Part shown: one piece after another, positions 26,234-31,198 of the stretch | Position numbering within the stretch: position 1 is the first letter of the stretch | Layout: every line of letters begins with the position of its first letter | NCBI GenBank assembly: GCA_046154225.1 | Contig: JBJXEM010000007.1 | Location: forward strand, 859 to 64,858 | Reading direction: 5' to 3' | Length of the DNA: 64,000 bases | Source: Rickettsiales bacterium | Lineage (GTDB): Bacteria > Pseudomonadota > Alphaproteobacteria > Rickettsiales > UBA3002 | Notes under the pieces: generated by a model | Told to the model about the DNA's origin: nothing | Seen by the model: only the letters and a program-made list of their open reading frames with translations | The model's database searches: none | Translations under genes and position numbers: made by a program

Positions 26234-29200
26234 GTGTCGTTACGCCTCGTTATTATATCGCTCTTCACTTTAAGCTTGCTTTCAGTAGTGGATGGCGACA
26301 GTCGCTTTTCTGCCTTTGCTCAATCCGCCACCGGGCAGCCCGGCGGCAGTGCTCCACCACCAAAAGTCGATCTGCCGGGTGGCTCGGCGCCTCCCGGCGG
26401 CAAAGTCGATCTGCCGGGTGGCTCGGCACCTCCCGGCGGCAAAGTCGATCTGCCGGGTGGCTCGGCACCTCCCGGTGGCAAAGTCGATCTGCCGGGTGGC
26501 TCGGCACCTCCCGGTGGCAAAGTCGATCTACCGGGTGGCTCGGCACCTCCCGGTGGCAAAGTCGATCTGCCGGGTGGCTCAGCACCTCCCGGTGGCAAAG
26601 TCGATCTGCCGGGTGGCTCAGCACCTCCCGGTGGCAAAGTCGATCTGCCGCCAAATCCTAACCCTCCCACCTGCGACGCGGCGTGCCAGGAACAGACTAA
26701 ACGCGCGATTGAACGGGAGAATGATCTCAAAAGAAGGGGGCTCGTGGGTGGCCCCACCTCCACACCGGCCCCAAGCCCTGCGCCAGCAGGAAATACCCCT
26801 CCAACTCCCGGCGGTAACACACCTCCTACACCGGCGCCACCCGCCGGCGGCGGCGCACCGACAACGCCCACCCCAGGCCCCGCGCCCGCACCAGCGGCTG
26901 CACCCGCAGCCGCTCCTGGCCCTGCCCCCATCTGTAAGGAACCCACAAGCGGCACGAGCACTAGCACTTCACTCGACTGCGACATGCGCTACCGCGAAAC
27001 GGTGGTCACCTGCGACACCTTCGGCACCACGCCCCCCTGCCCCAAAAAGCCGATGCCAATGAAGGAAACGCCGCGCAAATCCTTCATCAAGGATTACTCG
27101 CCCTACCTCTATATCTACGCCACTGACCCGGACGACAAAGCCAAAGCCTACACCGGCCCGTTTTATCGCGGCACACCCGGAGATTCAGGGCAGACCTTCC
27201 AGATTTTTGGTGCGGGCGGCTCGGGTAAAAACCTGGCCCCGTGCGTGCGTGAAATCAAGGCACCGGGCGGCGCCAGCAAGCTCTCGCCGGAAGACCAGGC
27301 AAAGTTGATGCGGTTGCAGCTCGATAACTGCGCCAACCAGTATATTTTACACGCCGCCATTTATCCGCAGCAGAAGGAACAAAAAGAAGAAACTCGCCTG
27401 TTCTCGATGGAAGACCCGAAAGACCCCACCAAAAAGGTGAATCTTGAAACCCATTGCCAGCCGCTGCGCTTAGCCAAGGACACTACACAGGAATATCTGG
27501 CCTCGACCTACCTTGAGGTGGCGTGGAAAAAGCTACTCACCGACCCCGGCTACCGCAAGGATAAGGAAAACCCGGTCGAGCCGCATTTGCCCGACGGCAT
27601 AAAGCTCGAGAACACCAGCAACGCGAACGTGAAATTACCAACACCGTTCCCGCAGGTTAAACTGTCCCAGATCGGCACCGTGGAATACGAAGAGATTAAC
27701 GATCCCACCCACCCTTTCTCGCCGCGCTGGGATTTTAAGTGGAACGAGCGCGACCATTATTCACCCAAAACCCAACCCTACGGTGGTGACCCCAAAAACG
27801 CCGTTTTCTGCGCTGGGGACCAGGATAAGAATATCGCCAAAGTCGATATTCTGTCGTTCCGCGAGGAACGGCTGAAGTTCGACAACAAGCTCAACGACCG
27901 CATCAATTTCAACAAAAACTGCAAAGCCAATAGTGGGCTGCAGAAAAATCCGTGCTGTAAAATTACGCCTAACGGCCCGTTCGTCGTCAACTGGACCTGC
28001 GAAGTGCTGCCCTGCGCCACCTGTTACGGGATGACGGAAAAAAATCCCGTCTGCAAAACCGATTATCTCAGCACGCCCGACCGCAACAGCGTGAAAGTGC
28101 CATATCTGGCGGTGCACCCCTTCCTGCGGGCCGCTTCGCAGGTGGGTGATCTTGCCAATGGCTTGAAGTCGTTGTCGAGCCTGCCGGCCAATTTGCCGCT
28201 CAGCCAGGTAAAATCGGTTTTGGGTTCGCAGCTCGGCATATTGAGTGCGCTGCCCGGCAATTTGCCGATCAGTGCCGCGTTGCCGCTGCTGAATGGGCAG
28301 GTGAACATGCTGGGTTCGCTCGGCTCGCTGGGGCAGAATTTTTCGCTGGGGCAACTGGGTGCACTTTCATCGCTGCAGTCGCAACTGATTGGCAATTTGC
28401 CGGGTAACCTCAATCTCGGCCAGATTCAGTCGATCGTGGGGGGCCAGGCGAATATTTTAAACAGCCTGGGTGGCCTCGCCGGTGGCGCGGGTGGCGGTGC
28501 TGGTGGCTTGGGCCGCCTGTCACTGGGGCAGTCGCTTTCGGGGTTAGGTTCGGTCAGCGGCCTGCTGGGCGGCCTGCCCGGTGGCACGCAGCTGGGACAA
28601 GCGGCGAATTTACTGAGCGGGCAAGTCACACTCGCGCAGAGTTTACCTACCGGAATTTTGGCGGGCGAAGCGCGTAACCTGATTAACAATCAACTCAGCC
28701 AGATCGGTGGGCTGAATCAGGCGCTCACCATCGGGCAGGCGATCAATAACGGTTCACTGAGAACTAACGCGATTCCGGGCCTCAGCCAGTTACCCACGAC
28801 CATGACCATTGGGCAGGTGGGCAGCCTGCTCTCCTCCAACGCAACCGGGTTGGGACAGTTTGGCGCGAACCAGGCCGCCGGTCAGTTCGGGCAGGTGCTG
28901 AACACGCAGCTCGGCGGGATTCTTAGACTTCCGCCCGATCTTCCGGTCGGTCAGGTCAGCTCACTACTGGGGGGATTGCAAGGCGGGCTGACCAACTTAA
29001 ACGCACTGGGCGGCGGCATCGGCGGCGCTGGCGGCGCGCTCGGTAGCATCGGCGGGGCATTGGGTGGGCTTGGTGGCGGTGGCCTGTCGCTCGGCCAGAT
29101 CGGCAGTGTGTTCAGCACGCAGGCACTTGGGTTGCCGCAGTTGCCGGGGAATTTGAACCCGGCCCAGATTGGCGCGGTTTTCGGCTCGACCGGCAATCTT

Positions 29201-31198: not shown

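Follow-up and report, generated by a model that had tools for sequence, protein, structure and literature searches.

We analyzed a 64,000-nucleotide stretch of a metagenome-assembled genome (MAG) labeled Rickettsiales bacterium (GenBank assembly GCA_046154225.1, contig JBJXEM010000007.1, positions 859 to 64,858 of the forward strand); this whole stretch is referred to below as the window, and all positions count from its first letter. The open reading frame (ORF) at 26234-31198 on the plus strand of the window, with a GTG start, encodes a protein of 1654 amino acids (aa) that contains two near-perfect tandem arrays. Comparison with its relatives places this large gene in a conserved, previously undescribed family of putatively exported proteins, of which it is a member inflated by repeats. 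The reading that we favor, with a probability of roughly 0.6, is that its product is a Sec-exported, disulfide-stabilized envelope protein in which a conserved core bears flexible appendages lengthened by repeats.

A putative exported-protein family in uncultured Alphaproteobacteria

A first homology search, in which the two nonrepeat parts of the protein were compared separately by word index with 5.8 billion clustered proteins, returned 14 and 7 matches, all of them annotated as hypothetical and all originating from MAGs of Alphaproteobacteria, Rickettsiales, or Rhodospirillales. A profile search of 1.84 billion proteins yielded 300 family representatives (each standing for a cluster at 50% identity), 191 of which lie below 1e-30, with lengths of 694 to 2846 aa. 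Scanning one genome per GTDB species located 61 family loci, every one of them in uncultured alphaproteobacterial MAGs labeled Rickettsiales, Azospirillum, or Alphaproteobacteria, and repeating the homology search with a 67-sequence profile added no named protein. One MAG (CAZUXB01) holds two separate family loci, L037 and L057, and some genomes may carry paralogous family copies.

Both halves of the window protein contain motifs that are nearly invariant in the family (DPxHPFSPRWD, NKLKMRY, PYxRxxDxG, RCxxGG, SWxExKLYQ, WRGY, and PDxCGxT), and eight cysteines are nearly invariant in the family alignment. Pfam, NCBIfam, PHROGs, and PADLOC gave no relevant match to the whole protein, to either half, or to the linker between them, nor to the several giant members of the family that were also scanned, and sequence profile searches of the PDB with three alignments came back empty.

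The protein begins with a Sec-type signal peptide (signal peptides were judged by eye from sequence) ending in SAFA before Q, and the same AxA/Q pattern appears in L006, L008, L010, L011, L013, L015, L019, L020, and L066; the position of the GTG or TTG start is also kept in relatives. In most close relatives, the core begins directly after the signal peptide. The N-terminal half of the core carries the motifs DNCxNQYIL, CQPL, DPxHPFSPRWD, and VFCAG and ends near aa 633 (...VKVPYLAVHPFLRA); the C-terminal half resumes near aa 1208 (SLPFLTVLAMPYQRTARC...) and carries NKLKMRYHNP, MPYPRxWDTG, AIVGxGRE, RCxxGGWG, PDPxTSWxExKLYQxRT, WRGY, and DNGKxPDxCGTT. The protein has 30 cysteines, none of which fall in the linker or the repeat inserts. 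In the linker itself, Gly makes up 31% of the residues and Leu 19%, and only 10 of 585 residues are charged; it consists of degenerate repeats of the type LPGNLxxxQVxxLLxGQ with a period of ~23 aa.

Much of this organization had been recognized in an earlier, sequence-only reading of the window, made without database searches. The two near-perfect coding arrays in a 1654-aa protein that it described are borne out by the ORF call, by Tandem Repeats Finder (TRF), and by reading in the coding frame, and the signal-like N terminus, the Pro/Ala/Thr spacer, and the Cys-containing C-terminal region are all present. Its ~600-aa region of degenerate Gly/Leu/Ser/Gln repeats measures ~570 to 600 aa in our hands, and the secretion that it proposed gains support from the signal pattern recurring in relatives together with the conserved cysteines, both of which suggest export. 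The Cys-rich region that it placed after the spacer exists as well, but its length of ~450 aa needs correction, the conserved core there spanning ~400 aa (aa 234-633).

A probable loop insertion in the family core

The N- and C-terminal Cys-rich halves directly adjoin each other in short members of the family such as P0014 (694 aa) and the full-length P0011 (733 aa). AlphaFold2, supplied with the 67-sequence family alignment, models P0011 as one compact unit with a mean predicted local distance difference test (pLDDT) score of 88.9 and a predicted template modeling (pTM) score of 0.90, and the residues at the junction of the halves have pLDDT values of 94 to 96. We located the insertion site by manual mapping of the window protein onto short members, in which the gap between the core segments flanking the site is ~8 residues (P0006) or ~5 residues (P0011). 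Because the halves are contiguous in short members and the P0011 model is compact, the ~570-aa Gly/Leu/Ser/Gln region of the window protein has probably been inserted into a loop of a globular core and is not a stalk between domains; the picture of two domains joined by a repeat stalk is probably wrong.

Other family members are inflated as well. A census of the family places recurrent large low-complexity insert sites at positions ~30 (the N terminus), 235, 345, 395, 425, and 500 in P0011 numbering. The inserts of L021, L012, and P0046 are Ser/Leu/Gly/Gln/Asn repeats of the same LPGNLxxxQ type as those of the window, L019 and L020 have Gly-rich inserts within the C half, and those of L033 are acidic and rich in Asn and Met. 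The N-terminal extension of P0068 (1078 aa), at residues ~30 to 400, is built of Leu-rich repeats of ~12 aa, with a Pfam match to MgtE_N in 7 stretches (E value of 2e-39). The presence of MgtE_N-like repeats on this core shows that repeat modules of very different kinds have been added to it in different lineages. We rejected an MgtE_N-like helical nature for the linker repeats themselves, as a phmmer search of the P0068 region against the linkers of the window, P0021, L021, P0046, and L012 found nothing significant.

Two coding arrays of recent origin

Array 1 opens with a 36-bp variant unit that, read in the coding frame from 26342, encodes GGSAPPPKVDLP; the remaining seven units, at 26378-26650, are 39 bp each and encode GGSAPPGGKVDLP. 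TRF delimits this array as 26363-26650 (39-bp period, 7.4 copies, 97% matches, score of 534) and array 2, with units encoding GLGGIGGALGGLGGG, as 29267-29580 (45-bp period, 7.0 copies, 93% matches, score of 544). Compared with the unit consensus, the copies in both arrays show 19 differences, which represent 14 distinct events. Eighteen of the 19 differences are synonymous (6 of 6 in array 1 and 12 of 13 in array 2), the sole nonsynonymous change being a replacement of Gly by Ala in the final unit of array 2, whereas a synonymous share of ~31 to 33% is expected for random single-base changes in the units (P of ~1.6e-6). We conclude from this bias that the frame from 26234 to 31198 is truly coding and that the array peptide is under constraint or selection.

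Since the unit lengths of 39 and 45 bp are divisible by 3 and both arrays fall within the ORF, a change in copy number alters the size of the protein and not its reading frame. Both arrays thus have the sequence form of an in-frame variable-number tandem repeat (VNTR), with near-identical units of a length divisible by 3. Exact and degenerate searches of JGI metagenomes for the array units, including the coding unit of GGSAPPGGKVDLP, gave 0 matches.

The closest relative found (L066/P0021) is ~71 to 72% identical to the window protein in both core halves and shares its synteny. By position, the linker of the window protein is the ortholog of those in P0021, L021, and P0046; it is 36% identical to that of P0021, against the 71 to 72% seen in the core, and evolves faster than the core. 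Array 2 is absent from P0021, falling in a gap of the linker alignment. The N terminus of L066 reads ...NALAQA-KVDLP-PNPNPP..CDAAC..., with one KVDLP where the window has 8 units, and this gene contains no GGSAPPGG unit, no GLGGIGGALGGLGGG array, and no TRF match. Comparable perfect arrays are likewise missing from the other family representatives, in which the best cases are an 11-aa unit in 4.6 copies and a 15-aa unit in 2.5 copies. Because neither the closest relative nor the other representatives have comparable arrays, both arrays are recent, lineage-specific amplifications seeded in existing variable regions, in agreement with the recent expansion suggested from the sequence alone.

Upstream region and gene order

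The intergenic region between the large gene and the divergent virB8-like gene contains a conserved, promoter-like block (Table 1). In an alignment of 13 species-level loci (the window, L066, L005, L008, L010, L011, L013, L014, L015, L019, L020, L021, and L028), TGCAG (26165-26169) and an extended -10-like element, TGnTAaTGTAAA (26184-26195), are invariant; next come a CA-rich leader, a Shine-Dalgarno-like element, GGTGTGGG (26220-26227; element pattern GGGTG(T)G), and the GTG or TTG start. The invariant pattern can be written TGCAG...TGnTAATGTAAA, and its columns persist though the proteins at the 13 loci are only 40 to 70% identical. Rfam matched no family to the block, a scan for the sigma-70 consensus did not flag it, a terminator scan was uninformative, and the block contains no repeats. 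A hairpin is inserted in the leader of the relatives L005, L008, L010, and L014. From this conservation we infer a function as a control element, and the conserved block and start together support the GTG start codon and a real, regulated expression of the gene.

Table 1. Positions of the features discussed within the window
Feature	Position	Strand	Description
virB9 (P-type VirB9/CagX)	24636..25433	-	Pfam CagX, 1.5e-64; TIGR02781, 247 bits, above cutoff; NCBI VirB9, MFM9889372.1
virB8-like gene	25411..26130	-	Pfam VirB8, 1.3e-15; divergent to the large gene; start at 26130 read from sequence
Conserved upstream block (promoter-like, with 5' untranslated region)	26145..26233	+	Within the 103-bp intergenic region between virB8 and the large gene; 13-locus alignment
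Putative Sec-type signal peptide	26234..26320	+	aa 1-29, MSLRLVIISLFTLSLLSVVDGDSRFSAFA before Q; GTG start; read by eye, recurs in relatives
Array 1	26342..26650	+	One 36-bp variant unit, then seven 39-bp units; inside the N-terminal extension of the mature protein
Rest of N-terminal extension	26651..26932	+	PNPNPP-CDAAC and a short helix-like segment (kept in L066), then a Pro/Ala/Thr-rich spacer
N-terminal half of family core	26933..28132	+	aa 234-633; 15 Cys; 72% identical to P0021, 55% to L021
Insertion of ~570 aa (linker)	28133..29854	+	aa 634-1207; almost uncharged, rich in Gly/Leu/Ser/Gln/Asn; degenerate ~23-aa repeats
Array 2	29267..29581	+	45-bp unit present seven times, encoding GLGGIGGALGGLGGG; lies within the ~570-aa insertion
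C-terminal half of family core	29855..31198	+	aa 1208-1654 and stop codon; 13 Cys; 71% identical to P0021
Downstream partner gene	31186..32847	+	553 aa, predicted to be exported; conserved Cys; 13-nt overlap between its start and the stop of the large gene

Downstream, the large gene appears from the overlap of the two reading frames to be translationally coupled to a second orphan gene with a predicted exported product. A homologue of this partner lies directly downstream of the family gene in at least 12 relatives, with a start/stop overlap or a gap of 0 to 1 nt. The partner contains a 27-bp repeat (31621-31719, 2.3 perfect copies) whose unit encodes GGGGNGDGT; Gly-rich repeats in coding sequence are therefore a feature of both genes in the operon. 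The partner protein has no match in Pfam, NCBIfam, PDB, PHROG, or PADLOC, and an hhalign probability of 1% led us to reject a paralogous relationship between it and the large family.

The setting is chromosomal, with recQ, amt, mscS, hisI, tsaE, recA, alaS, and flagellar export genes nearby. The gene order recurs in many genomes: hisI, virB9, and virB8 precede the family gene, which is divergent from virB8 and is followed by its partner, and murU, amgK, and tsaE come next on the opposite strand. The virB9-virB8 adjacency is kept in ~30 loci, down to an identity of ~25% in the C half, and ~25 more distant loci keep murU-amgK-tsaE and have no virB8 or virB9 within 10 kb. Among close relatives, synteny extends over ~30 kb, housekeeping genes included, which makes the virB adjacency alone weak evidence of function.

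Several other features of the window deserve mention. Just upstream of hisI-virB9-virB8, two adjacent ORFs (22206-23036 and 23130-23939, both on the plus strand) encode pseudopilin-like proteins of ~270 aa with prepilin-type N-terminal methylation motifs, and L010 has a weaker homologue at the same place. The ORF at 36845-40156 (+), of 1103 aa, yields only weak TPR matches and is syntenic beside tsaE in most related loci. Three large ORFs have no Pfam domain: 168-4112 (-), 1314 aa; 8077-10488 (-), 803 aa; and 11737-15627 (+), 1296 aa. Finally, two opposed matches to the whalefall-1 RNA motif (RF01762), at 41329-41382 (+) and 41400-41482 (-), score 46.9 and 43.2 bits against a gathering score of 37 and lie inside the 5' part of a long fliP ORF call (40584-41729) whose FliP domain begins only at residue 183. 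Given these matches and the late onset of the domain, the real fliP start is probably downstream of the called start, which would place the whalefall-1 RNAs in the fliP upstream region.

DISCUSSION

We propose that the large gene encodes a periplasmic or cell-surface envelope protein of a family that would be vertically inherited in uncultured Alphaproteobacteria. Its functional unit would be a core of ~700 residues, with aa 234-633 and 1208-1654 packed as one globule, that accommodates very long low-complexity insertions at a few sites on its surface. The window protein would have two such inflated sites, namely, the Pro-rich mature N terminus and one ~570-aa loop of old degenerate repeats, and at each of them one short unit (13 aa and 15 aa, respectively) would recently have been amplified in frame, likely by replication slippage or by unequal recombination of neighboring copies while selection preserved the peptide. 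A gain or loss of copies would then make the flexible appendages longer or shorter and leave the gene switched on.

Two known kinds of protein help to frame this proposal. In-frame VNTRs occur in exported proteins such as the streptococcal alpha C and Rib proteins and the tandem-repeat proteins of Ehrlichia, and the tandem arrays themselves, as in-frame VNTRs in an exported protein, are ordinary. The window protein resembles these in having near-identical units, of a length that is a multiple of three, in a predicted exported protein, for which size variation is expected; it differs from them in lacking homology and in that its arrays are recent add-ons within older degenerate inserts of a globular core. 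In flagellin, the two conserved ends of the chain pack against each other, leaving a hypervariable central region exposed. Here, too, two conserved halves would form one unit around a faster-evolving, length-variable, Cys-free middle that is rich in Gln, Asn, Ser, Leu, Gly, and Ala. Unlike flagellin, with which it shares no similarity of sequence or fold, the window protein has a Cys-rich core, a Sec-type export signal, and several insertion hot spots. By analogy, the core could be an assembly or partner-binding module and the appendages the exposed, fast-evolving part; the candidate partners are the coupled downstream protein and, possibly, the VirB8/VirB9 envelope complex.

Several observations weigh against this proposal or narrow it. 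The protein that was modeled is a short homologue only 33 to 38% identical to the window protein, and we infer from it that the halves of the latter pack together despite the 570 aa between them. AlphaFold2 prediction of the nonrepeat domains, as the sequence-only reading had envisaged, gave a usable result for P0011 and failed for the window C half, for which a 10-sequence alignment led to a pLDDT of 43 and the model was discarded. Foldseek comparison of the P0011 model reached best E values of 1.7 in PDB and 0.66 in BFVD, with all TM scores below 0.1 relative to the query, and the modeled core accordingly appears to be without a known fold match, a claim limited to the solved structures of PDB and the predicted viral structures of BFVD. 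Neither His nor Ser occupies any invariant or nearly invariant position when the family is aligned, and no catalytic or binding site was identified in the family. In addition, because the longest exact self-repeats in the arrays are 69 and 98 bp, a MAG contig such as this one could misstate the copy number within them.

The strongest of the competing explanations, although an unlikely one in our estimation, holds that the large protein and its partner form a module linked to a type IV secretion system (T4SS), either as accessory envelope components or as Sec-dependent two-step substrates of a VirB system, with variable appendages that would contact target cells and a control region of ~100 bp shared with virB8-virB9. 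Pertussis toxin provides an example of a Sec-dependent two-step substrate, in that case of the Ptl system. The divergent arrangement of virB9-virB8 and the family gene is kept in ~30 species-level loci and persists where the upstream synteny (hisI and others) has been lost, the intergenic region is short and includes the invariant block, and the source MAG is labeled Rickettsiales. A lone minus-strand virB9-virB8 pair that faces other genes also mirrors "islet C" of the rvh system of Rickettsia (PMC2653234), and the proposed targets of rvh systems in basal free-living lineages are other microbes (PMC11077975), which would suit such a module.

The likeness to rvh islets, which have virB9-virB8 on one strand facing divergent genes and in which T4SS genes are scattered, extends only so far. 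The hallmarks of rvh systems are duplicated virB4, virB8, and virB9 and multiple virB6 genes, and the divergent partner in Rickettsia is virB7-virB8b-virB9b-virB10-virB11-virD4 (PMC2653234; PMC11077975), whereas in the window it is the orphan family gene and a second orphan gene. The ~25 distant loci that retain murU-amgK-tsaE have neither virB gene nearby, the ~30-kb synteny of close relatives means that the adjacency may be inherited gene order, and the window holds no T4SS gene besides virB8 and virB9. Neither the large protein nor its partner has a Pfam or NCBIfam VirB match, and Foldseek comparison of the P0011 model with PDB returned no T4SS chain. Still more doubtful is the proposal that the large protein and its partner constitute an exported module with a new fold that has coevolved, and works, with the chromosomal genes for the VirB8/VirB9 outer-membrane complex of rvh-like T4SSs in basal Alphaproteobacteria labeled Rickettsiales; such a module could be a cargo secreted in two steps or could extend the machine at the cell surface, with hypervariable, insertion-tolerant loops contacting target cells and the intergenic block providing common control.

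Other secretion systems offer likenesses of composition. Harpins (HrpN and HrpZ) use the type III secretion system, and mycobacterial PE_PGRS proteins use ESX. These proteins share with the linker of the window protein long, Cys-free, low-charge stretches rich in Gly, Leu, Ser, Gln, and Asn and repeats of the GxGG type, a resemblance of composition that we treat as a lead only. The linker has no Pfam match to these families and sits in a Cys-rich globular protein with a Sec-type signal.

The sequence-only reading had favored a surface fiber or adhesin subject to phase or size variation, with a repeat number that would vary between cells or strains and so alter adhesion or evade recognition. 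We find this improbable, although tandem units that are near-identical and in frame are the kind of sequence on which size variation classically acts, the protein has a signal peptide, and no part of the family evolves faster or varies more in length than the inserts, as expected of exposed regions. Phase variation in the strict sense is excluded, for units of 39 and 45 bp inside the ORF cannot shift the frame, and no repeats lie in the upstream block, so that the hallmarks of a contingency gene are missing. As for a fiber, Pfam and NCBIfam scans of the large protein revealed no autotransporter barrel, outer-membrane anchor, RTX or type I secretion system (T1SS) signal, pilin, sortase motif, or other anchoring or secretion domain. 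Type V adhesins (autotransporters and trimeric autotransporters) differ from the window protein, which has no barrel match and ends in a Cys-rich core half, as do RTX/T1SS adhesins with their GGxGxDxUx calcium-binding repeats, given the lack of a HemolysinCabind or related match, Gly repeats without Asp, and the Sec-type signal. The repeat region appears to be inserted in a globular core and is not a stalk leading from an anchor to a head, the gene is a syntenic member of the chromosomal core genome, unlike typical accessory adhesins, and the JGI searches for the units yielded no other copies.

A periplasmic protein that binds or remodels peptidoglycan is less probable again, and we give it little weight. 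In nearly all 61 loci, including those lacking virB8 and virB9, the family gene region adjoins murU-amgK-tsaE (murU-amgK being genes of MurNAc recycling), and the family has a conserved Cys (RCxxGG) as well as a conserved cluster of acidic and polar residues; the beta-rich C-terminal region (GDIxxxP...V.V.E.DNG) also bears a superficial resemblance to NlpC/P60 and CHAP domains. The family gene and murU-amgK are convergent, however, and hence not cotranscribed, and the family has no conserved His that could complete the Cys-His pair of NlpC/P60 and CHAP enzymes. Pfam gave no match to NlpC/P60, CHAP, SLT, LysM, or related domains, nor did Foldseek find a hydrolase or SH3-like match in PDB.

That the gene is an artifact, i.e., a spurious ORF in GC-rich repetitive DNA or the product of misassembled arrays, is close to refuted: GC-rich repeats do yield long ORFs in several frames on both strands, and an exact-sequence lookup failed to find the 1654-aa product in a collection of 15 billion proteins that holds the neighboring RecA (MFM9889400.1) and VirB9 (MFM9889372.1; it occurs in SRR28962017, and its sequence lookup returned only a 967-bp Logan contig), but homologues of the two flanking halves number in the hundreds, relatives have an orthologous linker, conservation extends to the start, the signal peptide, and the upstream block, and the private substitutions carried by individual array copies argue against a simple assembly loop and, with the almost exclusively synonymous differences in the coding frame, against the assembly artifact that the sequence-only reading had itself considered.

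An exported envelope protein with a conserved core and repeat-lengthened appendages therefore remains our preferred explanation, and its wider value lies in the family to which it belongs. This family is sizeable, is confined to poorly known uncultured Alphaproteobacteria, and has a confidently predicted core that is unmatched in PDB and BFVD and is unusually tolerant of giant low-complexity insertions in several loops. If the link to the T4SS is true, the family would represent a new class of component or cargo for rvh-type systems, in lineages that are used to reconstruct how the Rickettsiales came to associate with hosts. If it is not, the family would still be well suited to structural genomics and would offer a natural case of a scaffold able to take up long loops of disordered or repeat sequence.

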